Of a DNA stretch of 64,000 nt, positions 5,446 through 42,879 are shown one piece after another. This DNA comes from Actinomycetes bacterium. GTDB taxonomy: Bacteria > Actinomycetota > Acidimicrobiia > Acidimicrobiales > JAJZXF01. Where the stretch lies: positions 1,162 through 65,161 of the forward strand of contig JAJZXF010000004.1 in NCBI GenBank assembly GCA_021802485.1, read 5' to 3'. Numbering within the stretch: position 1 is the stretch's first letter; each line of letters begins with the position of its first letter. Position numbers and translations under genes: made by a program. The notes under the pieces are model-generated. The model had not been told where the DNA came from and searched no databases. It saw nothing but the letters and a program-made list of their open reading frames with translations.

Positions 5446-5491
5446 CGCAAACCAGCTAAGGTGGCTACGTGGTTGCCCTTGAGGAGTGCAT

Positions 5492-24418: not shown

Positions 24419-25221
24419 TGCTCAGCTCCGCTTAGCTCACCCGGATGGGATGTTCCGCTAGTCGCTGGTTCTGGCGTTCGAGCGGTCCATCGTGTTCCAG
24501 CCGATTGGAGCACGATACGAACTCGTTCAAGCGCGGACCCCATCTGTGCATCGATGTGACATGGACCTGCGTCCAGAGTGCACCCGCTCCGCTCGACCGC
24601 TGGATCGGCGATGATGGTGACGGCTCGCGTCTCACTCTTTGTCTCGAGGGGATCCAGCTCGGCGAGCGTTGACGCGTCATCCGGGTGCACGTGTATACGC
24701 AGTGGCTCGTCGCAGGGCGCAAGCGCAAGGGCGCGTGCGATCGAGTCCATCCCGGGATCCTTGGAGAGCTCGAGCTCCCGGCCGACAAGGATCTCGGTCA
24801 GGCGGAAAGAGAACTCGGTGATGTCTGCTGTAGCGACCCGAGCAGCCTCGACGCGAGCTTTCATCACGGAGATAGCGGCATCCTCTAAGGCCTTGACTGC
24901 TCTGTCGATACGCTCGCTGAGCTCTTGCGACATTCGCGCGATCTCACTTGCGACCTTTTCAGCAGCTTCAGTTGATGCTTGAGTGAGCCCGTCTTGGTAG
25001 CCAGTTGCGTACGCCTCCTCGAGCAGGCCCGAGAATCCGTAGTTCGCAAGAGCTGGCTTGTCGCCTTCTTGCTTGGCGCGTTGCTCTCGCGTTTCCACCA
25101 AATCCCGGGCGCTCGTTGGGAGCCTCACCGCTAGGGTGACGGGCTGGGCCGCGTGGGCATCAGCGCCCTTTAGAACGCAAGGCCGGGTTCCCCCGGGGTG
25201 CTTACTCCACCAGCTCGTCAT
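24415..25221 (-). CDS. fliH: Flagellar assembly protein FliH
   Basis: 268 aa. ...EEAYATGYQDGL..., a coiled-coil region, then LRIHVHPDDASTLAEL...TIIADPAVERSGCTLDAGPCHIDAQMGSALERV, which is the FliH/YscL pattern. Sits between fliG and fliI. Confidence 0.7.
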   Translation of the reverse strand: MTSWWSKHPGGTRPCVLKGADAHAAQPVTLAVRLPTSARDLVETREQRAKQEGDKPALANYGFSGLLEEAYATGYQDGLTQASTEAAEKVASEIARMSQELSERIDRAVKALEDAAISVMKARVEAARVATADITEFSFRLTEILVGRELELSKDPGMDSIARALALAPCDEPLRIHVHPDDASTLAELDPLETKSETRAVTIIADPAVERSGCTLDAGPCHIDAQMGSALERVRIVLQSAGTRWTARTPEPATSGTSHPGELSGAEQ

Positions 25222-26221
25222 TTGCCCTCACAAGGACTATCTCTCCCGCAGCTTCGAGCTCGCGGACTCTCTTCACGAGTTCAGCTTGCGCTGCCTCTAC
25301 GGTCTCTACCCTGGTTGGACCGAGGACGTCCATCTCCTCTTCGAGGTCCGCGGCGGCCCGCTCGGACAGGTTGCGGGTGAACTTCTCTCTCACATCCCCC
25401 GAGGTTCCCTTGAGCGCGATCGCAAGATCCCGTGGTGCAATGTTCCGGAGGACCTTTTGAAGCGAACGATCATCGAGCGCGATTATGTCGTCGAAGACGA
25501 ACAGGAGGTTTCTGACCTCCTCCGCAAGTTCGGGGTCGGTCTGCTCCAGTGTGGTCAGGACCTGCTTTTCCGAGGAGCGGTCAGCGTAGTTCAAGATGTC
25601 GACGAGCGACTTCACGCCGCCGCTCGCGTTATTGCGGTTCTCGAACAGCACTGAAAGCTTCTCAGCGAGTACCTCTGCGGTGTCCCGCAGGACATCCGGC
25701 GAGGTGCGCTTTGTGGTCGCTATCCTGCGGGCTATGTCCGCGCGCAGCTCCTCTGTGATCTGATCGAGCACCGCTGCGCCGTCCCTTGCCGGCAGGTGGG
25801 CAAGGACGGTCGCTACCGTCTGCGGGTGCTCCTCGGCGAGGAAGGTGGCTATCTGCTGTGGATCTATCGAGTCAAGGAAGTTGAACGGTCCCCGTGGGTC
25901 CTGCTTCTCGAGGCTGCGAAGTACCTCGTCCGCACGCTGGGCACCCATGCGAGCCTGGAGGATCTTGCGGGCTGCGTCGAAGCCCCCTTGACCCACCGAG
26001 TGCAGTGCAGCGAGTGTGCGGACGAAGTCGCCGACGAGGTCTGTGACGACGCTATGGTCGAGGGGTGGGAGCTTAGCCAGCGCGGCCATGAGGTCCACCA
26101 CCTCGACATCGCTCATCGATTTCATGATGTTAGCGACCTGATCCTCGTTCATCTGGGCCAGCATCGCGGCCGCCTTCTGGCGTCCGTTCAGGGCGCGGAT
26201 GCTGTTGACTCCCTCGCTCAT
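25202..26221 (-). CDS. fliG: Flagellar motor switch protein FliG
   Basis: 339 aa. ...LNGRQKAAAMLAQMNEDQVANIMKSM..., ...LFVFDDIIALDDRSLQKVLRNI..., ...MDVLGPTRVETVEAAQAELVKRVRELEAAGEI. Confidence 0.95.
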   Translation of the reverse strand: MSEGVNSIRALNGRQKAAAMLAQMNEDQVANIMKSMSDVEVVDLMAALAKLPPLDHSVVTDLVGDFVRTLAALHSVGQGGFDAARKILQARMGAQRADEVLRSLEKQDPRGPFNFLDSIDPQQIATFLAEEHPQTVATVLAHLPARDGAAVLDQITEELRADIARRIATTKRTSPDVLRDTAEVLAEKLSVLFENRNNASGGVKSLVDILNYADRSSEKQVLTTLEQTDPELAEEVRNLLFVFDDIIALDDRSLQKVLRNIAPRDLAIALKGTSGDVREKFTRNLSERAAADLEEEMDVLGPTRVETVEAAQAELVKRVRELEAAGEIVLVRANDELVE

Positions 26222-27819
26222 GCGCCTTCTCCTGTCTCGTGCATCCAGGAGCGCAACAGGCCTGCGACCTCGTCAGGCTGGGAGTCTATGAAGTCCGTCA
26301 AGCTTGCCCCGATACCCCCGGGGCGCTGCGGAAGGAGTGCAAGGTCTTGATTGTCGCCCGCAGTGACCGGAAGCTCGCTCGTCGGGGGGCCCGTGATCGC
26401 CAAGGTGTCCATCCCGTTAAGGGATGCTGGGATCATCGCGAGTCCACGCCGGCGGGCTGACTTACGGCTCGATCTCCAGAGCATTAAAACCACGATCGCG
26501 ATGACAAGCAGTATTGCGAGTGCCTTGATCAGGTTCAGCAGCTGTGCTCTTTGCGCCGCGGCAGCCGCGCTGGCGGCTGCCGCCTGGGCTTGTGCCTGGG
26601 CTTGCGTCGAGAATCGCATTGTCTGCACGCTCAGGACATCGCCCCGTTTTGGCTGCACCCCAGCTGCAGCAGCGATGCTCGTGCGCAACGATGCGAGAGA
26701 GACGCCTCGCGGGAGGGAGTTCACCACGACAGATACACTCATGTGGTTGATCATGCCGGGAGGCTGGCTCACGGTCTGGTCTATCGATCCTGCGGTGTTG
26801 GTAGTCGACGTCTGAGTCTGGGTGTACGTACCGCTTTGTGGAACTGGCATGCCTGGTGCGGTAATCCCACCGAGAGCGCCGCCGGCGGTGGTGCCGGTGC
26901 CAGTGAAGGTCTGATGCGTGGATTGCGAGTTGATCGGGACGGTCACTGGCACCCCAGCAGGAGTTGTCTGGATCCCCTTTGTCGTCGTGGTTGTCGTAGC
27001 GTTATTGAGGCTTACGTTCACCGCGACCGTGGAATTGTTCGTTCCGAGTATGCGCCCGAGCATGCCTTCGATCGAGGCTTTGACCTGATTGTCAACTGCG
27101 AGAGCTGCGTTGCTCGCTGCACCTTGGCCGTTTGCTCCAGGTCCCGCTAGAAGGTTGCCGTTGGAGTCGACGATCGTGACGTTCGATGCGCTCAGGTTCG
27201 CGACGCTTGCTGAGACTAGGTGCACGATCGCTGCGACCTCGCCTGAGCTCAGCACCCCGCCCTGGGCCATGTCCACCAGCACGGAGGCAGACGGGGTCTG
27301 CTGCGGGCCGAGCGCAAAAGCCGATTGGCTCGGCAAGACGAGGCTCACTCGCGCCCCGGTGACGCCGTGGATCGCTTCGATGGTGCGGGTTAGCTCCCCT
27401 TGGAGTGCTTGCTGGTACTCGACTTGTTGGGTGAAGTGTGAAGTCGTGATGCCCTGCTTGTCCAGCAACGACAGCCCGACAGTCCCACCCGAGGGCAGGC
27501 CTTGCTGCGCCATGTCCAAGCGCTGCTGGTAGACCTCGTTCTGGGGCACGAGGATCGTGCTTCCGCCGTTTGCGAGCTGGTAGGGAACCTTGTTAGCGGT
27601 GAGCTTTGCGGTGATGCCTGCTGCGTCAGTCGGCTGAAGGTTGGTGAACAAGGGGCTCCAGGATGGCGTAGATGAGACGTTGACGAAGATGACAGCCGCG
27701 ACTATCACCGCGAGAAGTGCGACGATAGTGACTGCTTTTTGTCCAGTGGTGAATTCGTTCGAGAACCGCCGTACTGCCTGCTTGATCTGCTCGAGGTAGT
27801 CGTTCATTGATGCTGGCAT
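26218..27819 (-). CDS. fliF: Flagellar MS-ring protein FliF
   Basis: 533 aa. N-terminal TM, YscJ/FliF ring-building region (...GITTSHFTQQVEYQQALQGELTRTIEAIHGVTGARVSLVLP...), second TM, and a C-terminal FliG-binding tail. Confidence 0.93.
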   Translation of the reverse strand: MPASMNDYLEQIKQAVRRFSNEFTTGQKAVTIVALLAVIVAAVIFVNVSSTPSWSPLFTNLQPTDAAGITAKLTANKVPYQLANGGSTILVPQNEVYQQRLDMAQQGLPSGGTVGLSLLDKQGITTSHFTQQVEYQQALQGELTRTIEAIHGVTGARVSLVLPSQSAFALGPQQTPSASVLVDMAQGGVLSSGEVAAIVHLVSASVANLSASNVTIVDSNGNLLAGPGANGQGAASNAALAVDNQVKASIEGMLGRILGTNNSTVAVNVSLNNATTTTTTKGIQTTPAGVPVTVPINSQSTHQTFTGTGTTAGGALGGITAPGMPVPQSGTYTQTQTSTTNTAGSIDQTVSQPPGMINHMSVSVVVNSLPRGVSLASLRTSIAAAAGVQPKRGDVLSVQTMRFSTQAQAQAQAAAASAAAAAQRAQLLNLIKALAILLVIAIVVLMLWRSSRKSARRRGLAMIPASLNGMDTLAITGPPTSELPVTAGDNQDLALLPQRPGGIGASLTDFIDSQPDEVAGLLRSWMHETGEGA

Positions 27820-27832
27820 GCTGTCGTACCCC

Positions 27833-28141
27833 TCAGATCTGCATGTTCATTACGGCGTTGAAGGCACTTACAGCCTTGTTCGCTACGGTCATGGTCAACT
27901 GGGTGGAAAGAGATGCCTTCTCTGCCGCGATCATCATGTTTGGCAGGCTTCCCTGCCCTGATGCTGCGGAGAGCTCCTGAGCGTTGGCGGCATTCTGAGT
28001 GTTTTGCAGCCCGTCGAGCGCTTTTGCAAGCGATGCCATGAAGCCACTGGAGTTGCTCGCCGCGGCGGGTGACTTTTGGACAGCGGATGCGCCGGTTGGG
28101 GCCGGGATCGCAGGCAGCGACGGGATCGGCAGTACCCCCAC
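27833..28141 (-). CDS. fliE: Flagellar hook-basal body complex protein FliE
   Basis: 102 aa. C-terminus ...MMIAAEKASLSTQLTMTVANKAVSAFNAVMNMQI matches FliE. Located between flgC and fliF. Confidence 0.85.
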   Translation of the reverse strand: MGVLPIPSLPAIPAPTGASAVQKSPAAASNSSGFMASLAKALDGLQNTQNAANAQELSAASGQGSLPNMMIAAEKASLSTQLTMTVANKAVSAFNAVMNMQI

Positions 28142-28147
28142 TATTGA

Positions 28148-28558
28148 TCAGCTCCCGAGAGTCAGTGCGGACTGGTAGGCGCTGATCGCGTGTGTTGCGA
28201 CGGCGACGTTCGACTGGTAGCTGTCTTGAGCGATGACAAGGTTCACGAGCTGAGTGCCCATGCTGACCGATGGGTACTGCACGTAACCTTGGGCATTCGC
28301 ATACGGGCTCGCCGGATCGTACGCAAGCTTGCCTTTGGGGCCGAGCGCCACTCCTGCCATCGTCACTCCCGCAGCGACCCCGCCCGGCGGGTTGCCTGTT
28401 TGAGCCGGTACAGCGATTGGGGATTCAGAGCGATATCCTGGCTGGCCGACTGGGGAGATGTCGTTCGCGTTCGCTATGTTGCCGGCGATCATGTCCAGCC
28501 AGGTGTGGGCCATGTCCATTCCGGATGCGGCTATCGGCAGTGATTGGAACATGCTCAC
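28148..28558 (-). CDS. flgC: Flagellar proximal rod protein FlgC
   Basis: 136 aa. MSMFQSLPIAASGMDMAHTWLDMIAGNIANAND... and ...MGTQLVNLVIAQDSYQSNVAVATHAISAYQSAL. Confidence 0.93.
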   Translation of the reverse strand: MSMFQSLPIAASGMDMAHTWLDMIAGNIANANDISPVGQPGYRSESPIAVPAQTGNPPGGVAAGVTMAGVALGPKGKLAYDPASPYANAQGYVQYPSVSMGTQLVNLVIAQDSYQSNVAVATHAISAYQSALTLGS

Positions 28559-28905
28559 GTGAAGCTGCCTCCGAGCGAACCGCGCACCAGGCGGATCTGC
28601 GCGTTGAGCGCATTGACCATGGTCTGGTACTGGAGGGTGACTTTTTCCGCTGCAATGAGCTCCGCTGAGAGGTTGACGTTGTTCCCGTCGCTCGCAGGAG
28701 GGGCATTGGATGCCATCTCGGTTGCCGTTGCGGTTGCAGTCGATCCGGGCGAGGAAAGCGCCTGTGTGAGAGACCGCTCGAAGCTCACCCCAGTTGCCGT
28801 GTACCCCGGCGTCGCGTAGTTCGCGATGTTGTTTGCAATTGCCTGTTGCCTGAGCGACAAGCTGTCGATAGAGAACTGGAGCACGTTAACGACCGAGCTC
28901 TGCAT
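28555..28905 (-). CDS. flgB: Flagellar proximal rod protein FlgB
   Basis: The ATG at 28905, 9 nt after AGGAG, gives MQSSVVNVLQFSIDSLSLRQQAIANNIANYATPGY... The C-terminus is NNVNLSAELIAAEKVTLQYQTMVNAL. The track TTG start (28914) is less likely. Confidence 0.9.
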   Translation of the reverse strand: MQSSVVNVLQFSIDSLSLRQQAIANNIANYATPGYTATGVSFERSLTQALSSPGSTATATATEMASNAPPASDGNNVNLSAELIAAEKVTLQYQTMVNALNAQIRLVRGSLGGSFT

Positions 28906-29013
28906 TCTGCACAACTCCTAAGGCTTTTCAAGGGCACGACAAAAATCGCCGTACCGGCTTCGCAGCCATCGTGGCCCTCCGTTGTGAGCAGTCCGTGCTT
29001 CCTTACGAAGTAT

Positions 29014-29559: not shown

Positions 29560-30880
29560 TCACGTCCGATCGCCAGAGGCGATGAGCTCGGCTACGGCGT
29601 CGAACTCCTGGCGCGACAGGATCGGCGTCGCACCGTAACGGCCCGACAGGTACCGGCGACCGACCTCCTCTTCCTTGCGCGGGTCGAGGTCGGCCAGCGC
29701 GTACAGGCGGGTGCTGCCGTCCGCCCGCTTCTCGGTGAACCAGATCTGGTCGCGGCCGAGCAAGCGATCACCGGTCGAGTCGCCGAGCAGCGCGGCATCG
29801 TGGGAGTTGAACACGAGCTGGGCGCTGCGAGGGTTCGTCGCCGGGTCCTGGAATAGGCGGACCAGCTCAGCAACGAGGGCGGGGTGCAAGCTGGCATCGA
29901 GCTCATCAGCCAGGAATACCGCACCGTCGGCGAGGGCCTCGACTACTGGGCCGGCGAGGCCGAACCACACGAGGGTGCCGAGCGACTCGTCGCCTGCGTC
30001 GAGCTCGACCTCCCCGCCGACGCCTCGGTGGAGGAGTCGGACCCCGAGCTCAGCAAAGGTGGGCCCCTTCTCCGAGCCGTCGGGCTCGCCCTCAACCCCG
30101 ACGAGGATCCGCGCGGCGCGCTGGAGACGATCCTTTATCACCGGGTCGAGGTCGTGCTTCCTTGCTCCCGTGACGCCGAGGTCAGCGGCCCGCAGCAGCG
30201 CAAGCACCTGCTCGCTCCGGGCACCCTGGTCGAGCAACTGGTTCGTGAGCGCCTGGCGGAACGGCCGGCCTGTGCGCCTCGGCGAGGCGCAGGTTGCGTT
30301 CGAACCACCCGTACAGCGGGAGTAGCGCCGGGTGGTTGGCCGACGCCGCGGTCGAAAGGAACAACGCGTTCGGTCGGAGCAACTCTGTCACGGCTCGGCC
30401 TTTGGCCCGTTCGCCGGCCCCGAGGTCGACCTGGTCGCGTTGACGGCGGAAGAGCAGCGCCGCCTTCCCATGCGGGTAGCGGTAGGCCCACTCTTGGAGA
30501 ACCCGCTCATCGTCGAGCACGAAGCCGTACTCATGGCGGACGCCGGCGAGCACGAGATCGACCTCGAAACGCGAGGGCGACCGCCGCGCCTCGGGGTCGA
30601 GCAAGAACGGCCGCCGGGCGATCCCGCCGGTGGGGCTCCCCGCCCGGAAGGAGCGCAGGACGTGCACTCGCATGTCTTCCATCGCCTTCACGAGGTTAGA
30701 CTTGCCGGACGCGTTCGCGCCGAACACCCCGGCCGCCGGCAGCACCCCGGCCGGCCGGCCACCCTCTCGCCACGGCACTTGGCGCACCACCTCCTTCTCG
30801 GCTATGGCCGACGCCACCAGGGAGAGCTCGAACTCGTCGCGAAACGACCGGACGTTCTCGCTCCGGAAGGCGAGCAGCAC
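29560..30880 (-). pseudogene. AAA_21/ABC-type ATPase of the abortive-infection class, inactivated by a frameshift
   Basis: Two overlapping ORFs (30182-30880 and 29560-30237) together make one protein. The N-half has FRSENVRSFRDEFELSL...GVFGANASGKSNLVKAME (Walker A). The C-half has VFLADELDASLHPALV (Walker B/D-loop) and ...LLGRDQIWFTEKRADGSTRLYALADL...YLSGRYGATP. The frames switch near 30265-30285. Confidence 0.75.
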
Positions 30881-31139
30881 CGAAGCGTCACGACCCAGGT
30901 TGTGCTCTTCATAGAGGGATTAGTGCAGGAAACCATCGTGATTGCCAGTCTGATACTGAAGAAGGTGCTCACATGGTTCGGGCTGACGTGCGGAGCGACT
31001 GGAGAGCTATGCCGTTCGCGTGCGACAACTTGGTCGAAACGGACACGAGGTCTGACTGCGGCTCACACCGGAGACGCCAGCGCCCGCGGCTCACGCCTCA
31101 GTCGAGCCCGTGGAGAGTCGGACGGACCGGCCCCCGGAC

Positions 31140-31590
31140 CGACGAGGACTGGGATGCCCATGTCGTGGACTCGATCCAGCCAGCTGTTTCATACCTGCGA
31201 GACGCTCTTCGAAAAGACAATGGCGCAGAGAACGTTCTAGCGTGCCTGGTCGAACTGATCGAGCGAGTACCACCCGAACTGCGCAGAACCCTCACATGGG
31301 ACAAGGGCCGCGAGATAGCGCGCTGTCCCGAGCTCGTCGAGCTCTCCGGCATCGCTGTCTACTTCGCCGAGCCGGACAGCCCTTGGCAGCGGCCGAGCAC
31401 CGAGGCGTTCAACGGCCTGGTATGTCGCTCGTTGCCGAAGTCCCCCGATCCGTCGGTCTACGACCAAGACGACCTCGATCGAATCAGCCGCTAGATCAAC
31501 CTCACGCCCCGTCGTTCACTCGGGTGGCAGAGTGCCAACGCCCGCTATCATAGGGTCGTCGTTGCCCTCACCGGTTGAGATGGGCAACAG
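31140..31590 (+). pseudogene. IS30-family transposase remnant (C-terminal catalytic region, in-frame stop)
   Basis: ...VELIERVPPELRRTLTWDKGREIARCPELVELSGIAVYFAEPDSPWQRPSTEAFNGLVCRSLPKSPD...DLDRISR*INLTPRRSLGW follows the IS30 pattern (TWDNG.E...VYFA.P.SPWQRG.NEN.NGLLRQY.PKG.DLS....LN.RPRK.LG) with many substitutions. No N-terminal HTH half is present. Confidence 0.65.
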
Positions 31591-31686: not shown

Positions 31687-32838
31687 GTGGTTGACCCGAA
31701 TGCCGACATGTCCGGAGTGGATGTGACAGCTGAGACTGACGGTCTCGCACGAGCCCAATTGCTCCTATCAACGGGGCGCTACCAAGATGCATCCGCGCTT
31801 GCCTATCAGTGCGCTGCATCCAAGCCGGGCGATCCTCGACCATTGATCATCGCAGCGTGGGCTGAGATCGGACTCCGAAGATTCGACGCTGGTGAGCAAG
31901 CTGCGCGGGCTGCTATTGCCGTCGCACCTACCCTGGCGGAAGCTCACCGGGCGCTGGTTGCGGTCCTGACTAACCGTGCGTACAGTGCTGGGCGATACGC
32001 GACCGGGCAAGCAGGACGACGCGCTGTTGCCGCTGCCAAACGCCTCGTTCGGCTCGCACCAACCGAGGTGTCCTCGCATTGGGCCTTGATTGATTCCTGC
32101 GTTGCAGCGAGCCGAGTACGGTCCGCCGTCGCCGCGTCTAACACCGCACTTGCCATGGCCCCGGAGTCGACTCATACGTGGTTTCTTCGTGGCCGTGCTG
32201 CGCGACTTGCCGGTGACCTCCAGGTGGCCGAGTCGGCAATTCGCGAGGCTTTGCGCTTAGAGCCAGACAGCTACGAAGCCAACAACGAGCTCGGAATCAT
32301 CATGAGGGGCCGTGGACGTACCGCCCAGGCTCTGCAGCAGCTCACATCAACCGCATCCATGAACCCAATAGCGCGGCCTGCTCGGGCCAATCTGGTCCGC
32401 TACGGAGCCGCACCCTTCCAAGTCATAATCCTTCTGCTCACATTGCCCATATTGCTGGTCGTACACCCCATCATCGTATGGATTTTGGTGTCGATTGCGA
32501 TCAATACGGCACTGTGGAGGTTCGAGCCGACAAAGCGACGGCTCGAACGTCGGGCCCTGGCAATAGCGATCTGGCGAAGCCGTCGACCAGCTAGGCGCTC
32601 ACAACGCAAAGAAGCCCTTGTGCCACCCCACACCCCGATCCAGAGCTACCGGAACAACCGCACAGTGCTCGTTCTGTCCCTCTTGTTTCTCATCTGGATG
32701 TCCGCGCTGGCAACGGGTGCTGCTGCTCAACTCGCTCCCGATTTCCTTCCGCTATGTCTTTTCATTGATGTCCCGACTTGTGCATTCGCCTGGTTCGTCT
32801 ACAAGAGATTCCGGCCAAGACCAGCTGTGGAGCCATGA
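31687..32838 (+). CDS. TPR-repeat protein with C-terminal 4-TM membrane domain
   Basis: 383 aa. About 230 aa of TPR-like helical repeats, then two TM hairpins (QVIILLLTLPILLVVHPIIVWILVSIAINTALW and VLVLSLLFLIWMSALATGAAAQL...CAFAWFVYKRF) separated by an Arg-rich loop. Confidence 0.7.
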   Translation: MVDPNADMSGVDVTAETDGLARAQLLLSTGRYQDASALAYQCAASKPGDPRPLIIAAWAEIGLRRFDAGEQAARAAIAVAPTLAEAHRALVAVLTNRAYSAGRYATGQAGRRAVAAAKRLVRLAPTEVSSHWALIDSCVAASRVRSAVAASNTALAMAPESTHTWFLRGRAARLAGDLQVAESAIREALRLEPDSYEANNELGIIMRGRGRTAQALQQLTSTASMNPIARPARANLVRYGAAPFQVIILLLTLPILLVVHPIIVWILVSIAINTALWRFEPTKRRLERRALAIAIWRSRRPARRSQRKEALVPPHTPIQSYRNNRTVLVLSLLFLIWMSALATGAAAQLAPDFLPLCLFIDVPTCAFAWFVYKRFRPRPAVEP

Positions 32839-34103
32839 CCAGCGAAGACTTCCCGCCTCTATTGCAGAGTCTGTTGTCTGCAGTATCGAACGCCCCCCAG
32901 GATGTGGCGCTCCGCGTCCACGTCGCACGGCTTCTCTTCGAGGCCGGACACGCCGCCCAAGCCCTTGAGCATTGCGGCGCCGCACTTCAAATCGATCCGA
33001 GGAATCCCGAGGCAGCTGACCTGTTGTCACGCATCACGACGACCCTCACCGACAAACCCAAGGCAGGATCGCCGCCATCCCTATCACCTTCCCGACGGTC
33101 TGAGCGAGGACCAGCCACAAGCCAGCCTCCGCTCGGAGACGGCTTCGACTGGGAGCACGCCGAGCAACAGATGGCTTCCCCTGAGCCTTCGGTCGCTGCT
33201 GCGCCGCCGAATTCTCCACACGACCCAACGGTCGAGCGTCCCCAGGTCCGCCTCGCTGACGTAGGCGGGATGGAGGGTGTCAAACATGAGATAGAAGTTT
33301 CGTTCCTGCTCCCGATGCTGCAACCGGAACTTCGAGCGACCTACAACGCCACCGTCGGAGGCGGACTGCTGCTCTACGGTCCACCGGGCTGCGGAAAGAC
33401 GTTCATCGCCCGAGCACTCGCCGGAGAGCTCGGCGCCTGCTTCGCAGCGGTCTCACTCGCCGACGTGCTCGACATGTGGTTGGGACAGAGCGAAAAAAAC
33501 GTACACGCTCTCTTCGAACAGGCCCGCTCAAATCGGCCGGCCGTTATCTTCTTGGACGAGGTAGACGCCATTGGACAGAAGCGGGCCAATCTTCGAAACA
33601 ATCCCACGTTACGCGGAACTGTAAATCAGCTGCTATCAGAGATGGACGGCGCCACCAGCCTCAATGATGGAATCTTCGTCCTCGCCGCAACAAACCAACC
33701 TTGGGATGTCGACCCCGCGCTCCGCCGGCCTGGCCGGTTCGACCGTACCCTTTTCGTCTCACCTCCCGATCGCCCCGCGCGCGAAGCCATACTTCGATTC
33801 CATCTCCAGGGTCGACCTCTTGGGAGCATCGACTTTGGCCGGCTCAGTCGTGACACCGAGAATTTCTCTGGGGCCGACCTGGCTCATCTCTGCACACTCG
33901 CTACTCGATCAGCCCTCACCCAGGCAGCCAGAACGCACGCGGTACAACCGATCACCATGGCCGAACTTGAGGCGGCTCGACGCCAACTGAAGCCATCGAC
34001 CTTGGAATGGTTCGCCACTGCACGCCACGCTGCGACGTTTGCCAACACCGACGGCACGTACGACGACCTGATCGCCCACCTTAAGTCCCGAAAGCTCTGG
34101 TAG
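32835..34103 (+). CDS. TPR-domain AAA+ ATPase (classical-clade, CDC48/FtsH-like single AAA module)
   Basis: The ATG at 32835 overlaps the upstream stop (ATGA). TPR-like N-domain, Pro/Ser linker, Walker A LLLYGPPGCGKTF, pore loop MWLGQSE, Walker B VIFLDEVDAIG, SRH VLAATNQPWDVDPALRRPGRFDR, and lid FSGADLAHLC. Confidence 0.85.
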   Translation: MTSEDFPPLLQSLLSAVSNAPQDVALRVHVARLLFEAGHAAQALEHCGAALQIDPRNPEAADLLSRITTTLTDKPKAGSPPSLSPSRRSERGPATSQPPLGDGFDWEHAEQQMASPEPSVAAAPPNSPHDPTVERPQVRLADVGGMEGVKHEIEVSFLLPMLQPELRATYNATVGGGLLLYGPPGCGKTFIARALAGELGACFAAVSLADVLDMWLGQSEKNVHALFEQARSNRPAVIFLDEVDAIGQKRANLRNNPTLRGTVNQLLSEMDGATSLNDGIFVLAATNQPWDVDPALRRPGRFDRTLFVSPPDRPAREAILRFHLQGRPLGSIDFGRLSRDTENFSGADLAHLCTLATRSALTQAARTHAVQPITMAELEAARRQLKPSTLEWFATARHAATFANTDGTYDDLIAHLKSRKLW

Positions 34104-34203: not shown

Positions 34204-35000
34204 CTCAGCGTTTCGGAGCGTAGGAATCGAGGCCGAACAGGTCGTAGAGACGCTCTTGGGTAGTGTCGATCTCGCCTACACCGAAGTTACGCTGGCCAAG
34301 CGGGTGATCACGGCCATCGACCTGGGATGTCTCGTCTGCCGGTGATCGTCGTGGCTACATGATGCGTAGGGGGATTGGGATCCCGAGGAGCTCGAAGGCC
34401 TTTGCCTGGACGCGCGTGGGTATAGCGAGCCGATCGAACGTAACCTCGGTGCCCGCGCTTGGTTGGTGGTACCAGTGAGTGTGGCGACGTGGTCGAGCAG
34501 GCCTTGGAAAGTAGGGAGCGCAGTGCGATCCGGCTGAACTCGCCGCGCAGCGTTCGACGAGGCGGCCTGTGAGCGCTTGGCCAAAGCGACAGTGTCGGCT
34601 CGCTCGAGCGGCCTCTCGTCGGTGAAGCACAGCGGCGCCCACGCCCGGCGCTGGTGCCAGGTGAGATGGGCGCCGACCATGCAGATGAAGGCGTGCGTGC
34701 GCATCCGGTCGGCCAGGCAGTGGCGGATAGGGCGGATCTCCACGTCGACGCTCTTCGGGTGCGGGACGCAGTTGCGCTCCAGGTTGGACAGCGACTTGTA
34801 GGTCCTCAACACCTCTATAGCTGCCACCCTCTCTCTTGAAGCGAGGTGCGGATCACGTAGATCCCGTTCAAGGCGGCCTCGGCGCAGACCGCCTCCTCCT
34901 TGCGAGAGAAGACGAAGCGCCCCTCGGCGATCTCCAAGGAGAAGTGCTTGGCCATCTTGTGGCGATTCACGACGTGTCCGCCTCAACTCCCGATCTTGGT
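34204..35000 (-). pseudogene. IS4/IS1634-like DDE transposase remnant (C-terminal third, multiple frameshifts)
   Basis: Fragments lie in three frames: ...KMAKHFSLEIAEGRFVFSRKEEAVCAEAALNGIYVIRTSL; ...VLRTYKSLSNLERNCVPHPKSVDVEIRPIRHCLADRMRTHAFICMVGAHL; ...TRVQAKAFELLGIPIP; and ...GEIDTTQERLYDLFGLDSYAPKR*. Confidence 0.6.
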
Positions 35001-35331
35001 GGGGTCGTATAGGCGGCCGGCCTCGACCTGTGCCCTCACTCTTACCCACTAACGTGAGTTCCTTACGCTTGCGTTACAAGGGGTGTTCTACTGGTTACCT
35101 GGCCAATAGTGCGCTAACCGCGTCCCGCGCGCCGCCAGCAGAGCGAGAAGGGGCCGAATGAGAGCAGGGAGGAGGTGGGTTATTAGCGATGTATCCGGTG
35201 GGTCAGGCTGGTGGCTGGCGAGTGACGGCAAGTGGTACCCACCAAAGCTGGCTCCGCGCTTGGCTCCCACTGCGCCACCCAGCGGTACTGTCGTCCGGTC
35301 CGGCTCATATATACCGAGCCGACCAATCTCG

Positions 35332-35470
35332 CAGAGATGGCACCGATGCCCTGATTGTGGCAGGGAGGCACGACGAGACCTGTTCTCGGCGTTCCTCGGG
35401 CTCTACGTCCACCCGGTCACCGATGACAACGATGCGTCTAAGAATTTGCTCGACTTAGAGGGAGCTGTAA
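35332..35470 (+). pseudogene. Probable C-terminal fragment of a second TnpB-type (zinc-ribbon) protein
   Basis: Within the junk ORF 35158-35694, ...WHRCPDCGREARRDLFSAFLGLYV... resembles the C.CG....RD(L/N).(S/A)A..(L/I) end of IS607/IS605-associated TnpB proteins. Confidence 0.35.
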
Positions 35471-35766
35471 GCAACTTCGCAGCGTTCGCACCTCACCTCC
35501 AAGAAGCCGGAGGGTTGCCGAGGTCGAGCGGTGCAACATCCAAGGACCGCGGCCGACCTCGCCGTTCGCGACGATCAGCGGCGCGCATAACGTCCCGTCA
35601 CACCCGCCGCAGTCGTGGTGCGACAGAGGTGCTCGGCGACAATCCGGTACTGGTCCACGCAACCCCGGCAGAATCGTACGGGTTGGCGGCATGAGCACCA
35701 TGCCCCGGAAACCAGGCGCTCCCCACGGCCCGCCAGCAGTATCGGCGGGAGACAGCGCGCCGACAC

Positions 35767-36277: not shown

Positions 36278-36532
36278 GTGGAGTTGCGATTCGCGCAGGC
36301 TGCGCGCAGGCACCGAGTTGGTCGGGCGTCGGTGCGTTGGATGCTCGCTCGCACCCGCCCTATTGCCGCGACAACGAAGGACGGCAGCCAGGCGTGGCTG
36401 TGGGTTGGCCTCGACGACCGAGGTAGAGAACTCGAAGTCATCGCGGTTGAGGTCCAAGGTCCTCAAGATCTGGCCCCGGTCCTGTTGGTCATCCACGTTA
36501 TACCCACGCATTTCAAGAAGGAGGAGTCATGA
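36278..36532 (+). CDS. Small toxin-like protein (toxin-first TA arrangement, BrnT-like organisation)
   Basis: 84 aa. ...ARRHRVGRASVRWML...WLWVGLDDRGRELEVIAVEV...LLVIHVIPT.... Overlaps the downstream RHH gene by ATGA. The family assignment comes from memory of similar actinobacterial pairs and is not verified. Confidence 0.55.
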   Translation: MELRFAQAARRHRVGRASVRWMLARTRPIAATTKDGSQAWLWVGLDDRGRELEVIAVEVQGPQDLAPVLLVIHVIPTHFKKEES

Positions 36533-36837
36533 CCCGATCCAATCGCCCACATATCACCACTGCCACGCAGATCGGTCCCGATGTTGATCTTGACCGCGAT
36601 GATGTCCGTCTTGCGGACGGCACCCGCCTCACGTCCCTGCGGGCGGACCAGATCATCGAGGACGTTCGGCGCAGCGGCGGACGGCCTTCTCTGTCAGGCC
36701 GTGGCGCTCGATCTCCGCAAATAGCGTTTCGAGTTCCGCCCGAGGTTCGCGACCGCGCTGCCGATGTTGCGGCCCGGGAGGGAAAGACCGTCTCTCAGAT
36801 TGCCCGCGAGGCGCTTGAGGCGCGGCTCGCCGTGTAA
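36529..36837 (+). CDS. Ribbon-helix-helix (CopG/BrnA-like) antitoxin
   Basis: 102 aa. ...SGGRPSLSGRGARSPQIAFRVPPEVRDRAADVAAREGKTVSQIAREALEARL is a typical RHH DNA-binding C-terminus. Confidence 0.65.
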   Translation: MTRSNRPHITTATQIGPDVDLDRDDVRLADGTRLTSLRADQIIEDVRRSGGRPSLSGRGARSPQIAFRVPPEVRDRAADVAAREGKTVSQIAREALEARLAV

Positions 36838-37788: not shown

Positions 37789-38766
37789 TCAGCAGTTTCG
37801 CGCCCGTGTGAGTGCCAGCGGCGCTCTCACGCGCTCTTCGTATCCGGGAAGCGGTACACGGTGAATGCAGCAGTCGCAGTTGATGGTCGCACGGCCGTTC
37901 AGGGCTTCTGAGTAGCGCTCTAGGACGAGCGCCACTATCCGCGGGTCTGGACCGAGCTCCTTGCCGATCGAGACCTCGACGCCAGAGTGCTTGCTCGCCC
38001 ACTCGCGCGACTTTGCGCCGATGCGATCCACGAGTACGCCCGTGAAGAGGAAGTAGGGGACGACTGCGATGCTCTTGGCCCCAAGGAGTTCGCAGCGGTC
38101 AAGTGCATCCTCGACTGATGGCGCAGCGAGGGATATGAAGGCGGGCTCGATCATAGATAGGTGGCCTGGAGCCACGCGGCTCGATCTCGGATCGATGCTC
38201 TGGGCGTCTCTCGACGCCCGTGAGGCGACTGCGGCATCCTTTGGTGAAGCTGCGGGCATTGCCACCCCTCTTGAGTCGGCCAATAATCTCGCTACCTTGT
38301 AAAGATCCGCGTTGGCATCTGGATCAGTGGACCCTCGTCCCACCAGCACAACAGCATGATCCGCAGCACCAGTGGCTCGCATGCGAGAGGTGTTGGCAGA
38401 GCGGATACGCTCTTCTGCTACCGACAGTACGCTCGGGTCCACGCCGAGCTCCCGGGCGTAGGTGAAGGTTACGCCACGGTGCCTCAGCCTTGCTCGAGCG
38501 AGTGCAGCAGGCCCATCGTCCTTGCGGTGGCCGGCCCCAAGCAGCACCAGTGGCACAGCTACGACAGCTCTCGCCCCTTCGTTTACAAGAGCGTCGATAG
38601 CGTCGTCAAGAGCAGGCTCGGCCCACTCGATGAAGCCGGCTCCTTGCCTCAGATCTGGAGACTTCCTGCGTACTCTGGCCGCCAGCTCCCAGAACTGGGC
38701 TACCCCTGCGCTGGATTGGCTGCCATGGCCTATCAGGAGGAGAGCGGGGCTACGATCGTCAGGCAT
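37789..38766 (-). CDS. cbiX: Sirohydrochlorin cobaltochelatase, long form (two CbiX domains, Cys-rich C-terminus)
   Basis: ALLLIGHGSQSS...AVVAVPLVLLGAGHRKDD and AVVLVGRGSTDPDANA...IAVVPYFLFTGVLVDRI are the two CbiX halves. The C-terminus reads INCDCCIHR. The start is taken at MPDDRS (38766); the track start at 38862 overlaps cbiC. Confidence 0.8.
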   Translation of the reverse strand: MPDDRSPALLLIGHGSQSSAGVAQFWELAARVRRKSPDLRQGAGFIEWAEPALDDAIDALVNEGARAVVAVPLVLLGAGHRKDDGPAALARARLRHRGVTFTYARELGVDPSVLSVAEERIRSANTSRMRATGAADHAVVLVGRGSTDPDANADLYKVARLLADSRGVAMPAASPKDAAVASRASRDAQSIDPRSSRVAPGHLSMIEPAFISLAAPSVEDALDRCELLGAKSIAVVPYFLFTGVLVDRIGAKSREWASKHSGVEVSIGKELGPDPRIVALVLERYSEALNGRATINCDCCIHRVPLPGYEERVRAPLALTRARNC

Positions 38767-39481
38767 GCGGCTCCTTTCGTTCGCGAGCAGCTGAGTCATC
38801 TCCACGTCCGAGCAGAGGCACCCGAGCGGCGCTAGTGGGGCTGGTGTCTCGCGAGCTTGCAATGCGGGTGAGAGCGTTCAATACGGCTGCTGCAGCAGCA
38901 GAGCCACCTTTCTCGCCAGTGTTGGTGATGGTCGTGAGCCGCTCGCAGTTCCTTGCGCGCTCCTTTGCCTCCGCGGCGCCGACGAAGCCCACGGGCATGC
39001 CTATGACCAGTTGCGGGGCGAAGGCCTCCTGCTCTGCAAGGCGCACTACCTCCTCGAGGGCCGTTGGAGCGCATCCCACCACGACGATGGCTCCAGCTGG
39101 GTAACGCTCAGCAGCAAGGCGCATTCCAGCTGCACTCCTCGTTGCGTAGCGGCCAGCTGGTTGCATTGCCTGGTCGAGAAAGCAGTGAGCCTCGAGGTTG
39201 GTTATCCCGGCGCTGACCATCTTGGTGTCGCAGATTACCGGCGCTTTGGACCGCAGTGCTTGTATGCCTGCATCAGCGGCTCCCGCGTCGAACATGATCG
39301 TGTCAATGTACCCGGTGTCAGCTGTCGCATGAACTACCCTGGCCAGTATCCGAGCGTGGAGTTCGTCCCTTCCTGACAGGTCTACCCTTTCCGCGAGGAT
39401 TCGGAAGCTCTCAGCCTCTATCCAGTGCGGTTTCACGCGCCCGCCCGCCTGCTTCGCCCGCTCGTAGCGCATGCGGGGCAC
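38759..39481 (-). CDS. cbiC: Precorrin-8X / cobalt-precorrin-8 methylmutase
   Basis: ...IEAESFRILAERVDL...ARVVHATADTGYIDTIMF...PVICDTKMVSAGI...VVVGCAPTALEEV...VIGMPVGFVGAAEAKE...TNTGEKGGSAAAAAVLNAL. The start is uncertain; GTG 39436 is possible. Confidence 0.9.
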   Translation of the reverse strand: MPRMRYERAKQAGGRVKPHWIEAESFRILAERVDLSGRDELHARILARVVHATADTGYIDTIMFDAGAADAGIQALRSKAPVICDTKMVSAGITNLEAHCFLDQAMQPAGRYATRSAAGMRLAAERYPAGAIVVVGCAPTALEEVVRLAEQEAFAPQLVIGMPVGFVGAAEAKERARNCERLTTITNTGEKGGSAAAAAVLNALTRIASSRDTSPTSAARVPLLGRGDDSAARERKEPHA

Positions 39482-39695
39482 CCTTGATCTCGGTTATGGC
39501 TCCCGTAGGGCAGATCTCTATGCATTCGAAGCACACGCTACAGCGTTCCGCAAAGACAAGCACCCTTGCCGGTCCAGGGGCGAGTGCGCCCTTGGGACAG
39601 GTGACAATGCAGGCGCCGCAGCCGCTACAGCCTTCGCCAACCTGGATCGAGCCGGTCGCAGCCGGAGTTTGTGCGATGAGTGGGTTCGCGCACAT
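39411..39695 (-). CDS. 2x[4Fe-4S] ferredoxin
   Basis: 94 aa with two CxxCxxCxxxCP motifs (CSGCGACIVTCP and CSVCFECIEICP). Confidence 0.8.
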   Translation of the reverse strand: MCANPLIAQTPAATGSIQVGEGCSGCGACIVTCPKGALAPGPARVLVFAERCSVCFECIEICPTGAITEIKGAPHALRAGEAGGRARETALDRG

Positions 39696-39702
39696 GCCCG
39701 GG

Positions 39703-41592
39703 TCAGTGCCGCCGCGGATTCGGGGGATAGCCGCGCGGGGTTACCATCAGCCCGCGGATCACGCGGGTTGTTGCGGAGCCCACGATCACGCACGAGGTCA
39801 TGCCTACCGAGGTTGTGTCGAGGCCCGCTAGCGTGGTGAGGAGAGCCTGCTGGCCATGTCGCGCAGCGTCGGTTACCACACCGACCGGCGTGTCGGGGGG
39901 TCTGTGCTGCAGCAGAAGGTCGCGGGCAGCATCCAGCTGCCACGGCCGGGCAGCTGAGCGAGGGTTGTAGATCGCTACCGTAAGGTCCGTCTCCGCCGCG
40001 GCATCAAGGCGCGACTCGATAAGTTCCCAGGGCGTAAGGTGATCGGAGAGGCTGATTACCAGGTAGTCGTTCGCGAGCGGCGCACCGAGAAGGGATGCTG
40101 CGGTGAGCGAAGCGGTTACGCCTGGCAGGACTCGTATCTCGGGCGGTCCCGAGAGCGGCTCGGTCGTGGTTTGGTCTGCTTCGTGCTCGCTGAGCTGTGG
40201 CATCCTCGCGGACTCCTCCAAGACGATGGATGCCATGCCGTACACGCCGGGGTCCCCTGAGCAGACGACGGCCACCTGTTTCCCTGTTAGCGCAACCTCG
40301 AGCGCACGCTGCGCCCGCTCGACCTCGGCCCCGATTGCGTAAGCCTCCAGCCTCTGGTGAGCGCCAACGAGGTCCTTGCATGCGTCCAGGTAGGGCGCGT
40401 AACCAATTATCACCTCAGCGTTGCGGATAGCGGCTTCTGCTGCGGGTGTACGGTGCGCCCGTTCTCCGGGTCCAATGCCGACTACCGACACCGATCCACG
40501 TGGGGGCTGCCTGCGCGCGAGCGCGACCGTCGCATGGGCTGACTTGCGTTTCTCGAGTACTAGCTGGCCGCCGGGCCCAGCCGCTTCTAGAGCGGCCGCC
40601 TCCGCAACGCTGGGCGTCCCCACCGCCTGGTGCACGGTGGAACTTGGTGTCGGAACCTTCACCGCAGAAAGGGTCTCACTTGAAAAGAACACAGTCTCGA
40701 TTCCGATCCCGGCTATCGCGGGATCCTTCGCGCGCCGCTCGGCCGAAGCTATGAGTCCAAGAGACTTCCGAGACAGGCCAGACTCCTCAAAGCAGGCGTC
40801 GAGGAGGTGCTCGAGCTCTTCTACGGTCGCTCCGGTTGAGGTCCCAACGCCTGCGACGATGCTGGGTGGGCGCAGAAGGACCACCGCTTTGCCAGCGCGT
40901 CCCTCAGCACTTGCGACGATTTCGTCAGTCAGGATCAGGCGGGGCTTGCGCTCTTGATCACTTTCGCTGGCCGCGTGAGGAGCCCGCTCCGGAGGTGACG
41001 GCTCCCCAGGCGTGCCTGTTATCCGCTCGGGAGTCGTGATCACTTCGCTAGCATCCCTCAGCGCGTCGGGAACCGGCCAGGCTAGTTCGTTCTCTAGGAG
41101 CGGGCGAGCGCCATCGAGCATTGCCTTTGAGACCCCTGCAATGTCACCTTCTGCGATGAGGCCGGGCAGCGAGTCGAGTGCACAGGTCCCTGTTGCATCG
41201 GTCGCAGTGGTGATGACCGGCGTGGCTTGAAGGATCGCTGCGACCTCACGAGCGAGTTCGTTTGCCCCTTTGTCCCCGCGGTGCGTGTTCGAAAAGAACT
41301 CGAACCGCCGGTGCCCTCCGATTAGCGGGACGACGAACTCCCCAGCGTCGTCCACGCAGATGATACGGGGCAGGTTCGCGTGCGGTCTGCGATCTGGCTC
41401 GGACTCTTCCCTTGCGATCAGGGGAGCGATGATGCGGACTGCAGCACCAACCGCAATGAACAAAACGAAGCAGTCAACGTCGTTCCAGCGCTCACGGACG
41501 GTCCCGGCCAGGTTGCCGTGGGATCTCTCGTAGGGAAGCCGCGATGCGAGGTCGCGGCCGCGTTCGGTGACCGAGACGGAGAGTATGATCAT
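39703..41592 (-). CDS. cbiGH: Fused cobalt-precorrin-5A hydrolase (CbiG) / precorrin-3B C17-methyltransferase (CbiH)
   Basis: The ATG at 41592 overlaps the cbiET stop (ATGA). The N-half is CbiG-like. The C-half has SVVGIGPGERAHRTPAAEAAIRNAEVIIGY...VAVVCSGDPGVYGMAS...LPGVTASLTAASLLGAPL..., the tetrapyrrole methylase motifs. Confidence 0.9.
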   Translation of the reverse strand: MIILSVSVTERGRDLASRLPYERSHGNLAGTVRERWNDVDCFVLFIAVGAAVRIIAPLIAREESEPDRRPHANLPRIICVDDAGEFVVPLIGGHRRFEFFSNTHRGDKGANELAREVAAILQATPVITTATDATGTCALDSLPGLIAEGDIAGVSKAMLDGARPLLENELAWPVPDALRDASEVITTPERITGTPGEPSPPERAPHAASESDQERKPRLILTDEIVASAEGRAGKAVVLLRPPSIVAGVGTSTGATVEELEHLLDACFEESGLSRKSLGLIASAERRAKDPAIAGIGIETVFFSSETLSAVKVPTPSSTVHQAVGTPSVAEAAALEAAGPGGQLVLEKRKSAHATVALARRQPPRGSVSVVGIGPGERAHRTPAAEAAIRNAEVIIGYAPYLDACKDLVGAHQRLEAYAIGAEVERAQRALEVALTGKQVAVVCSGDPGVYGMASIVLEESARMPQLSEHEADQTTTEPLSGPPEIRVLPGVTASLTAASLLGAPLANDYLVISLSDHLTPWELIESRLDAAAETDLTVAIYNPRSAARPWQLDAARDLLLQHRPPDTPVGVVTDAARHGQQALLTTLAGLDTTSVGMTSCVIVGSATTRVIRGLMVTPRGYPPNPRRH

Positions 41593-42839: not shown

Positions 42840-42879
42840 CGCGCGGCCTCGCTGGCCTGGAGCCTCGGTCGCTGTCCGC

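Follow-up and report, generated by a model that had tools for sequence, protein, structure and literature searches.

What is the function of two overlapping genes that join a tetratricopeptide repeat (TPR) membrane protein to an AAA+ ATPase, and is the pair peculiar to the genome in which it was noticed? The question is raised by positions 31,687 to 34,103 of a stretch of 64,000 nucleotides (the window, in what follows) from contig JAJZXF010000004.1 of assembly GCA_021802485.1, a genome of the order Acidimicrobiales (Actinomycetota). The original prediction had described there an orphan and undescribed cassette, composed of a TPR protein with four transmembrane (TM) segments (gene 1) and a TPR-AAA+ unfoldase (gene 2), and had suggested a sensor/unfoldase acting in abortive infection or envelope stress. 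The pair, called here the dyad, recurs as a linked unit in many bacteria. We give an even chance to the reading that the TPR protein is a membrane adaptor and would keep the substrate-threading unfoldase at the inner face of the membrane, in the service of protein quality control or remodelling.

The two open reading frames (ORFs) and their ATGA overlap, read directly from the sequence, are as originally described (Table 1). The junction reads GAG CCA TGA for gene 1 and ATG ACC for gene 2, with a GGAG motif 6-9 nt upstream of the gene 2 start. This start is ATG 32835; the longest possible ORF begins at TTG 32778. The probable true start of gene 1 is GTG 31723, which is preceded at 5 nt by GGAG, gives a protein of 371 residues and agrees with the database representative P0121. 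The ORF pair is not a product of chance, since it has close homologues (E down to 1e-278) and adjacent NCBI accessions (MHB8289967.1/MHB8289968.1). By its sequence, the dyad is a translationally coupled two-gene unit, and the same coupling recurs at related loci.

The family of gene 2 is very large. Scores were obtained for more than 8000 database clusters, with full-length relatives at 52-76% identity, and 240 relatives came up when one genome per species was scanned. The best 80 of these 240 were fetched; they are 45-72% identical to gene 2 over essentially the whole protein and come mostly from Actinomycetota, such as Janibacter, Lapillicoccus, Mycolicibacterium, Microbacterium, Subtercola, Amycolatopsis, Pseudofrankia, Marinactinospora, Tsukamurella and others. 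Carriers are also found among the Dormibacterota, Chloroflexota, Acidobacteriota and Armatimonadota. A profile of the non-actinobacterial AAA members saturated the search again, the cultured Capsulimonas corticalis and Fimbriimonas ginsengisoli being among the matches. Full-length AAA relatives, at 45-76% identity, run into the thousands and span at least five phyla, and the term orphan has to be dropped. For gene 1, a word-seeded search gave only about 15 true homologues, and an exhaustive profile search was dominated by giant TPR proteins, its informative results being single-stretch matches of 350-420 residues that span the TM region.

Are the two genes linked elsewhere? In other Acidimicrobiales contigs they are adjacent with a 4-bp overlap. 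In Pseudonocardia, an AAA gene whose product is 53% identical to gene 2 overlaps by 4 bp, here too, a downstream gene for a partner of 349 residues with the plan of gene 1 (about 220 residues of TPR, four hydrophobic segments and an Arg-rich tail), the TPR parts of both partners being 31% identical over 226 residues. On Streptomyces linear plasmids, an ORF annotated in RefSeq as 'ATP-binding protein' overlaps by 4 bp a 373-residue 'tetratricopeptide repeat protein'. In Capsulimonas, the AAA gene is followed, after a gap of 15 bp, by a gene for a TPR protein of 417 residues with about six hydrophobic segments. The Streptomyces plasmids that carry the dyad are linear and of 0.4-1.1 Mb, for instance in S. 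goshikiensis (L089) and Streptomyces sp. KN37 (L090), and one copy lies near genes for a TOPRIM-domain protein and a non-specific endonuclease.

A systematic linkage analysis covered 84 non-redundant loci. At 49 of them, the ORF next to the AAA gene on the same strand has C-terminal TM segments and is recognised by the profile of the gene 1 family. At least 57 of the 84 have an adjacent same-strand partner, most often with four TM segments, when the partner is defined by its architecture, that is, a soluble N-terminal part plus at least three TM segments in the last ~190 residues; this count is a minimum, because the thresholds narrowly exclude two known positives and several of the negatives lie on contigs that are cut short. 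At 41 loci the partner is found downstream of the AAA gene, at 13 upstream (the arrangement of the window) and at three on both sides, and the 4-bp overlap is kept in at least 20 related pairs, in either gene order. Linkage in other genomes, the test that the original prediction had set for itself, is supported by these counts.

When all neighbours were clustered, only these two families proved to be conserved, the AAA protein in 76 loci and the partner in 53 (62 copies). A third conserved component was looked for in the all-versus-all clustering of the 84 neighbourhoods and rejected: an ABC ATPase, an EF-G-like protein and ClpB recur in subsets only. Both members of the dyad evolve at very different rates, with a median identity of 64% for the motor (over its core) and 24% for the partner. 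Their identity matrices correlate (r = 0.62), as is expected for a co-inherited unit. Moreover, tandem partner paralogues are found at several loci in 2-4 copies, so that one motor is accompanied overall by one to four partners, which suggests that the amplified partners are alternative adaptors for one motor. Amplification was seen at L058 (a metagenome-assembled genome (MAG) of the Intrasporangiaceae), L012, L040, L039, L043, L070 and L081; at L058 as many as four copies surround a single AAA gene, and at L012 and L040 the AAA gene is flanked by partners on either side.

Some loci depart from this plan. In Labedaea and Actinoallomurus (L020 7316-9505; L022 7340-9070), the downstream gene encodes a TPR protein of 576-729 residues that matches the gene 1 profile and has no TM segment; it may represent a soluble adaptor variant. 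Two Acidimicrobiia loci keep only fragments of the partner (L004 5278-5913 and L013 5460-5933, corresponding to profile positions 146-292 and 218-372), and at L013 the AAA ORF is truncated as well. To judge by these remnants, the dyad appears to decay in some genomes.

The features of both genes are listed in Table 1. In Pfam, gene 2 matches TPR_19 (residues 16-67), AAA (PF00004, E 9.7e-42) and AAA_lid_3 (E 7e-8); no Peptidase_M41 domain was detected in Pfam, and no convincing TM segment by hydropathy. Its AAA motifs are Walker A GPPGCGKT (182-189), the pore loop MWLG (214-217), Walker B IFLDEVD (238-244), sensor-1 ATN (285-287, with N287), the Arg fingers R298 and R301, and the lid motif FSGADL (344-349). 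In an alignment of 114 relatives, all of these motifs, the lid included, are invariant or nearly so: GPPGCGKT, DEVD, N287, R298 and R301 are found in all sequences, and in the pore loop (consensus M-W-x-G) G217 is invariant and W is kept in the family. The MWLG loop resembles the MWFG loop of p97 D2. The module is, as had been claimed, an intact classical AAA+ of the threading type and not a degenerate one. Because of its homology to p97 D2, gene 2 most likely forms a hexameric, ATP-driven unfoldase ring.

The N-terminal unit of gene 2 finds only TPR proteins in a profile search of the PDB, including the TPR tail of the chaperedoxin CnoX, and an hhalign comparison with the first repeat of the partner's own TPR array gave a probability of 52.7% (E 1.4e-4). 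Between this unit and the AAA domain lies a disordered and variable Pro/Ser linker. In the AlphaFold2 (AF2) model, the W106/E110 motif forms an isolated helix (106-114) within this linker, between segments with a predicted local distance difference test score (pLDDT) below 50 on either side; in non-actinobacterial members the motif is only about 8 residues ahead of the AAA domain. Its role may be to dock, as a peptide, in a TPR groove, or else to make contact with the ring. The C-terminal helices (389-403 and 410-418) are modelled with pLDDT above 93, and this C-terminus resembles the generic helix of Cdc48-D2/Vps4-type proteins. A proteasome-docking HbYX tail is absent from gene 2, the C-termini of the family being basic (RKLW/RKLA).

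Gene 1 gives Pfam matches to TPR families. The TPR protein with two TM hairpins and an Arg-rich loop that had been proposed is also what Pfam, hydropathy and the AF2 model recover. The best Foldseek matches of its superhelix are OGT, PEX5, APC/C and consensus-TPR superhelices, and the modelled fold is of the peptide-binding type, as in the first three of these proteins. Foldseek, which had been recommended as a check on both proteins, leads from gene 1 to TPR superhelices and from gene 2 to the D2 domain of p97/Cdc48/VAT. The model of gene 1 contains four long hydrophobic helices (230-258, 262-278, 325-349 and 351-375, in agreement with hydropathy), and the basic loop between the hairpins is of low confidence. 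This loop carries the conserved pattern LERRAL..WRSRR..LVPPxTPIQxYR. Basic stretches are found in the loop (RRLERRAL…RRPARRSQRK) and in the tail (KRFRPRP), the outer turns are minimal, and no signal peptide-like start is present at the N-terminus. Since loop and tail are basic and the external turns minimal, the positive-inside rule places the TPR domain, the loop and the tail in the cytoplasm, a topology that we infer for gene 1. The 15 members of the close family are conserved end to end, and the same membrane plan (tiny outer loops, basic cytoplasmic loops and tails) is seen in distant partners.

Table 1. Features of the dyad and of the neighbouring genes in the window (positions are those of the window; residues are those of the respective protein).
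Feature	Position	Strand	Evidence or remark
Gene 1 ORF, longest form	31687..32838	+	383 aa from GTG 31687
Gene 1, proposed membrane adaptor: cytoplasmic six-repeat TPR domain, two TM hairpins, Arg-rich loop between them, basic C-terminal tail	31687..32838	+	Pfam, hydropathy, AF2
TPR superhelix of gene 1, residues ~14-223, 12 helices forming six TPR units	31726..32355	+	AF2, pLDDT >90
Membrane region of gene 1: TM1-TM2 hairpin ~230-278, basic loop ~279-324, TM3-TM4 hairpin ~325-375	32374..32811	+	Hydropathy, AF2, conservation
ATGA overlap of gene 1 stop and gene 2 start	32835..32838	+	ATG 32835-37 over TGA 32836-38
Gene 2, 422 aa: small TPR N-domain, disordered linker, one classical AAA+ module, C-terminal helices	32835..34103	+	ORF, Pfam, AF2
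N-terminal four-helix TPR unit of gene 2, residues 8-72	32856..33050	+	AF2, pLDDT ~97; TPR_19/TPR_20 in 25/25 members
W106/E110 motif FDWxxAExQ of gene 2, residues 104-114	33144..33176	+	Invariant in 114 sequences
AAA+ core and lid of gene 2, residues ~133-384	33231..33986	+	PF00004, AAA_lid_3, invariant columns
C-terminal helices of gene 2, family-specific, residues 389-422	33999..34100	+	T389, W392, F402, N404, G407 conserved
Flagellar operon: FliI, FliG, FliF, FliE, two small rod-like ORFs	23111-28914	-	
Split AAA_21 (AbiEii-type ATPase): overlapping ORFs 29560-30237 (C-terminal half) and 30182-30880 (N-terminal half)	29560-30880	-	
Cobalamin operon: CbiX, CbiC, CbiG/methylase, CbiD	37789-44133	-	

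To which AAA+ group does gene 2 belong? In phmmer searches of the PDB as well as in Foldseek structure comparisons, its AAA domain comes closest to the D2 domains of p97/Cdc48/VAT, with identities of 34-38%. Scores against curated hidden Markov models (HMMs), in bits, are 208 for FtsH (TIGR01241, the top NCBIfam score; cutoff 600), 198 for CDC48 (TIGR01243; cutoff 803), 194 for PAN, 154 for CdvC, 125 for Mpa, 124 for IteA (NF042959; cutoff 510) and 34.5 for EccA (TIGR03922; cutoff 467), all of them far under the family cutoffs. Because of these D2 matches and sub-cutoff scores, gene 2 is classed from its sequence as a probable substrate-threading AAA+ protein of the classical clade, outside every curated family. 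The earlier statement that the pair matches no named system, be it EccA, IetA or any other curated one, agrees with these values and with the PADLOC scores.

Comparison with known systems shows what is shared and what is not. Cdc48/p97/VAT threads and unfolds its substrates and is brought to membranes by adaptor proteins; its pore loop (MW[FL]G), its double Arg finger and its C-terminal helix have counterparts in gene 2. However, gene 2 has a single AAA domain instead of tandem D1-D2 domains, a TPR N-domain instead of a double-psi-barrel, and no HbYX-type C-terminus. FtsH and Msp1/ATAD1 are classical AAA proteins that work at the cytoplasmic membrane face on membrane-associated substrates, as is proposed for gene 2, but the latter has neither a TM segment nor an M41 protease, and its proposed anchor would be provided in trans by a separate TPR-TM protein.

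EccA resembles gene 2 in having N-terminal TPR repeats followed by one AAA domain. In contrast to EccA, the score of gene 2 against the EccA model is far below the cutoff, and no type VII secretion system (T7SS)/ESX genes lie near the dyad. EccA belongs to the CbbX/SpoVK clade (PMC10659427), and the AAA domain of gene 2 falls outside it. This last point also bears on the idea that the dyad is a dedicated assembly chaperone for one envelope machine (a pilus, a secretion system or, in the window, the adjacent flagellum), comparable to EccA in the T7SS or SpoVK acting on MurG. TPR proteins are frequent in secretion and pilus assembly, gene 1 shows weak NCBIfam similarity to PilW, TadD-like, SctY and LcrH TPR proteins, and the flagellar operon of the window is about 3 kb away. 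However, genes for secretion, pili or flagella do not recur beside the module in the 84 loci, and in the window pseudogenes and an integrase fragment separate it from the flagellar genes; such a function is very unlikely.

The claim that the dyad is undescribed has to be corrected, because a similar operon had been noted computationally. Popp et al. (mSystems 2024; PMC11237479) listed a 'VPS4-like AAA+ ATPase → TPR + 6TM protein' operon, exemplified by Opitutus terrae Oter_1429 (ACB74714.1), and reported MIT+Vps4-AAA → TPR+TM(s) arrangements in five phyla other than those of the dyad, on computational grounds only (main text, Suppl. Text S2.2 and Table S3). For the Opitutus-type operon they inferred a 'membrane-proximal complex', an independent opinion that favours the adaptor reading of the dyad. 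Both systems are composed of two genes, a single classical AAA+ protein with a small helical N-domain beside a TPR protein with several TM helices, and this architecture is found in the window, at the at least 57 loci mentioned above, in Capsulimonas and on the Streptomyces plasmids. The Capsulimonas member has the gene order and the ~6 TM segments of the Opitutus-type operon and bridges both descriptions. Unlike that operon, the window copy has a TPR and not an MIT N-domain, and a four-TM partner located upstream of the AAA gene; in addition, the phyla do not overlap, and no members from the PVC group or the cyanobacteria were among the best 120 matches listed in the search with the non-actinobacterial AAA profile. 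Full-text literature searches retrieved no paper on a TPR-AAA/TPR-TM pair in actinobacteria. By its architecture, the dyad is a variant of a computationally noted, uncharacterised kind of operon.

The published parallel brings with it another explanation, which was proposed for the Opitutus-type operon: a Vps4-type (ESCRT-IV-like) membrane remodelling in which the polymer or substrate that the ATPase takes apart would be the TPR-TM protein and not ESCRT-III (PMC11237479). The layout of Vps4/CdvC is indeed that of gene 2 (small helical N-domain, flexible linker, one AAA domain, C-terminal helices), Vps4 also acts at a membrane with a partner encoded next door, and the downstream ~6 TM partner of Capsulimonas, together with the MIT-containing operons of the five other phyla, matches the published description. 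Furthermore, the C-terminal ATPase domain of Cdc48 is the closest relative of Vps4 (Makarova et al., PMC11188069), which reconciles the label 'VPS4-like' with best matches to p97 D2. However, an MIT identity of the gene 2 N-domain had to be rejected: Pfam MIT (PF04212) was found in 0 of 25 members at E <=10, the PDB profile search gave TPR proteins only, and hhalign against the MIT domains of VPS4A/B gave 1.1%. The AF2 lid of gene 2 is all-helical and lacks the β-domain insert of Vps4, the Vps4_C match is marginal in the family (2 of 17 members, E ~0.09), and the CdvC score is lower than those of CDC48 and FtsH. No Snf7/CdvB/PspA (ESCRT-III) family is present among the conserved neighbours in the 84 loci, and the partner shows no sign of polymerising. 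We regard this explanation as unlikely.

What surrounds the dyad in other genomes? The nearest non-module genes of the 84 loci (144 proteins) are ordinary metabolic and regulatory ones, for instance thiamine pyrophosphate enzymes, nitronate monooxygenases, methyltransferases, Dyp peroxidases and ECF sigma factors, with sporadic PADLOC matches. Synteny is kept across genera in the Intrasporangiaceae and across species in Mycolicibacterium. No relatives of either protein were found in IMG/VR, and phage GenBank records show FtsH-level similarity only. Outside the clade of the window, the neighbourhoods look largely like those of a conserved housekeeping module in a core-genome context. The original prediction had named such a context as evidence against itself; this applies to the other clades, whereas the Acidimicrobiales copies do have mobile or defence-like surroundings. 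These surroundings are a local feature of the Acidimicrobiales copies, for which an accessory, horizontally moving status is plausible, and the 'defence island' of the window copy should not be extended to the family.

Two kinds of neighbours may be related to stress, and clpB is the most informative of those that recur. A clpB gene lies directly upstream of the module and in the same direction in Phosphoribacter, an Actinomycetales MAG, Janibacter and another Intrasporangiaceae genome, and divergently from the AAA gene in Pseudonocardia, with hspR-dnaJ-grpE-dnaK nearby. HAIR-like HspR operators (CTTGAGT-N7-ACTCAAG, with 2-3 mismatches) occur at ~5945 in L005/L006, 3184 in L011, 2074 in L012 and 1153 in L032. 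In Pseudonocardia they lie between the divergent clpB and AAA genes, and at the other loci ahead of clpB; no terminator-like site was seen between clpB and the AAA gene in L011. Control of the whole family by HspR or CIRCE was considered and rejected, as HAIR-like sites are found only together with clpB (L005, L011, L012, L032) and there are no CIRCE sites. The link of clpB to the dyad is a hint. In addition, at three Microbacteriaceae loci (L028, L060, L070) the AAA gene is preceded on its own strand, at a distance of about 450 bp, by a gene for an ECF sigma-70 factor (~4900-5540). A small anti-sigma gene could lie in between.

Taken together, the adaptor reading rests on the fast-diverging and multiplied partners as opposed to the conserved motor, on the peptide-binding type of TPR fold, and on the tiny outer loops and basic cytoplasmic parts of the partner, and its role in proteostasis or envelope stress is deduced from the clpB/HspR and ECF-sigma associations and the housekeeping neighbourhoods. 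According to it, the two TM hairpins of gene 1 would anchor a cytoplasmic six-repeat TPR superhelix in the inner membrane. Gene 2 would form a hexameric, Cdc48-D2-like ring that threads polypeptides through its aromatic MWLG pore loop, with the small TPR N-domains hanging on flexible linkers. The adaptor would recruit the ring or its clients to the cytoplasmic side of the membrane, where the ATPase could unfold, extract or disassemble proteins, and one motor might serve one to four alternative adaptors. A stress or proteostasis role of this sort would follow the logic of the AAA part of FtsH, Msp1, Cdc48 or Vps4 working with membrane-bound partners.

A bolder version may be put forward tentatively, and we hold it to be doubtful. 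It would see in the dyad a widespread, split machine for extraction and quality control of membrane proteins, similar to FtsH, Msp1 or Cdc48, in which diversifying TPR adaptors (one to four per genome) deliver clients to an unfoldase without protease, which is tied to the HspR/ClpB heat-shock response in some actinobacteria, and in which W106/E110 docks in the TPR groove of the adaptor.

Several observations weigh against the adaptor reading. Around 25-30% of the loci have no adjacent partner, some of them being truncated contigs and some having TM-less TPR proteins. The TM region of gene 1 is modelled at moderate confidence only (pLDDT 50-86). The linkage to clpB is limited to 7 of the 84 loci and to two lineages, and the clpB gene of Janibacter is separated from the module by that of an unrelated FAD monooxygenase ('c39'). 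The dyad is known from sequences and models alone, so that hexamer, interaction, topology and proteostasis role are all inferred. Finally, the Acidimicrobiales clade is found in mobile or variable contexts: the window copy lies beside insertion sequence (IS) fragments and an Abi-type pseudogene, L001 is beside a group II intron reverse transcriptase, and L002 is inside an element with a small terminase subunit, HNH and DUF3854/DUF3631 genes. The Streptomyces copies, in turn, are on linear megaplasmids. Such clade-specific mobile contexts and megaplasmids would suit an accessory or conflict role as well.

Small TM-hairpin proteins are common abortive infection (Abi) effectors, and an anti-phage cassette would give each part of the dyad a task: the TPR domains would sense an invader protein, the AAA+ protein would remodel or activate the partner, and the TM hairpins would disrupt the membrane. 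The L001 and L002 contexts, the accessory segment of the window with its split AAA_21 Abi-type ATPase and integrase fragment, the Streptomyces megaplasmid copies near TOPRIM and endonuclease genes, and the fast evolution and tandem amplification of the partner would all fit this idea. IetAS/IteA is likewise a two-gene unit with a classical AAA ATPase, and IetA is the best PADLOC match of gene 2 (122 bits). However, this similarity is confined to the AAA core, as is that to TRIP13, both matches being generic (see also the IteA score above), the partner is not the IetS subtilase, and gene 1 has no PADLOC match. The PADLOC check for defence membership, extended to both proteins and the 144 flanking genes, gave nothing specific and no enrichment in defence genes. 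The metabolic flanks, the core-like conserved synteny of several families, with clpB nearby, and the lack of copies in viral contigs or phage genomes also speak against it, as does the motor, which is 45-57% identical across phyla, unlike the typically patchy and fast-evolving defence genes. The defence role that was originally proposed is thus left without specific support, and we consider it quite improbable.

The usual list of bacterial AAA+ proteins of proteostasis comprises FtsH, Lon, ClpXP/AP/CP and ClpB, to which Mpa/ARC and Cpa are added in actinobacteria. To this list the dyad would add a Cdc48-D2-like motor without protease that has its own genetically coupled membrane adaptor. The dyad counts thousands of members, spread over Actinomycetota, Chloroflexota, Acidobacteriota, Dormibacterota and Armatimonadota of soil and wastewater, and is given only generic names in genome annotation. 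If membrane proteins are indeed extracted or remodelled by the dyad, it would be a bacterial counterpart of the eukaryotic Cdc48-, Msp1- or Vps4-type membrane surveillance and would bear on the origin of Vps4-like single-ring ATPases from Cdc48-like ancestors. Cultured carriers, such as Mycolicibacterium, Microbacterium, Janibacter, Amycolatopsis, Capsulimonas and the hosts of the Streptomyces plasmids, make the dyad testable.

In the window itself, the dyad sits in an accessory segment of ~8.7 kb (29.0-37.7 kb) between the flagellar and the cobalamin operons. At the left end of this segment, the two overlapping AAA_21 ORFs look like a frameshifted pseudogene and coincide with the most GC-rich stretch of the window (0.66-0.68, versus ~0.61-0.63 around it). 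The original prediction had placed the dyad in a decayed island. The split AAA_21 Abi-type ATPase and an rve-integrase fragment support that description, but family searches lend little or no backing to its labels 'IS4/IS1634', 'PIN stub' and 'TA pair'. Apparent mobile-element debris is found at 30973-31494 (+), 35158-35694 (+) and 34276-35049 (-); its matches are an rve integrase-core fragment (E 0.002) and, in one ORF, a weak TnpB/Cas12f-type zinc-ribbon similarity (E 0.045), and an ORF of 257 residues within it has no family match. No RNA elements or tRNA genes were found in the window. Two small genes with a 4-bp overlap (36278-36532 and 36529-36837, +) encode in second place a protein with weak matches to Arc/ribbon-helix-helix proteins (E 0.008) and to Rv0623-like antitoxins, so that a toxin-antitoxin pair is possible but unproven. 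The flagellar operon, present in a MAG of the Acidimicrobiales, points to a flagellated member of that order.

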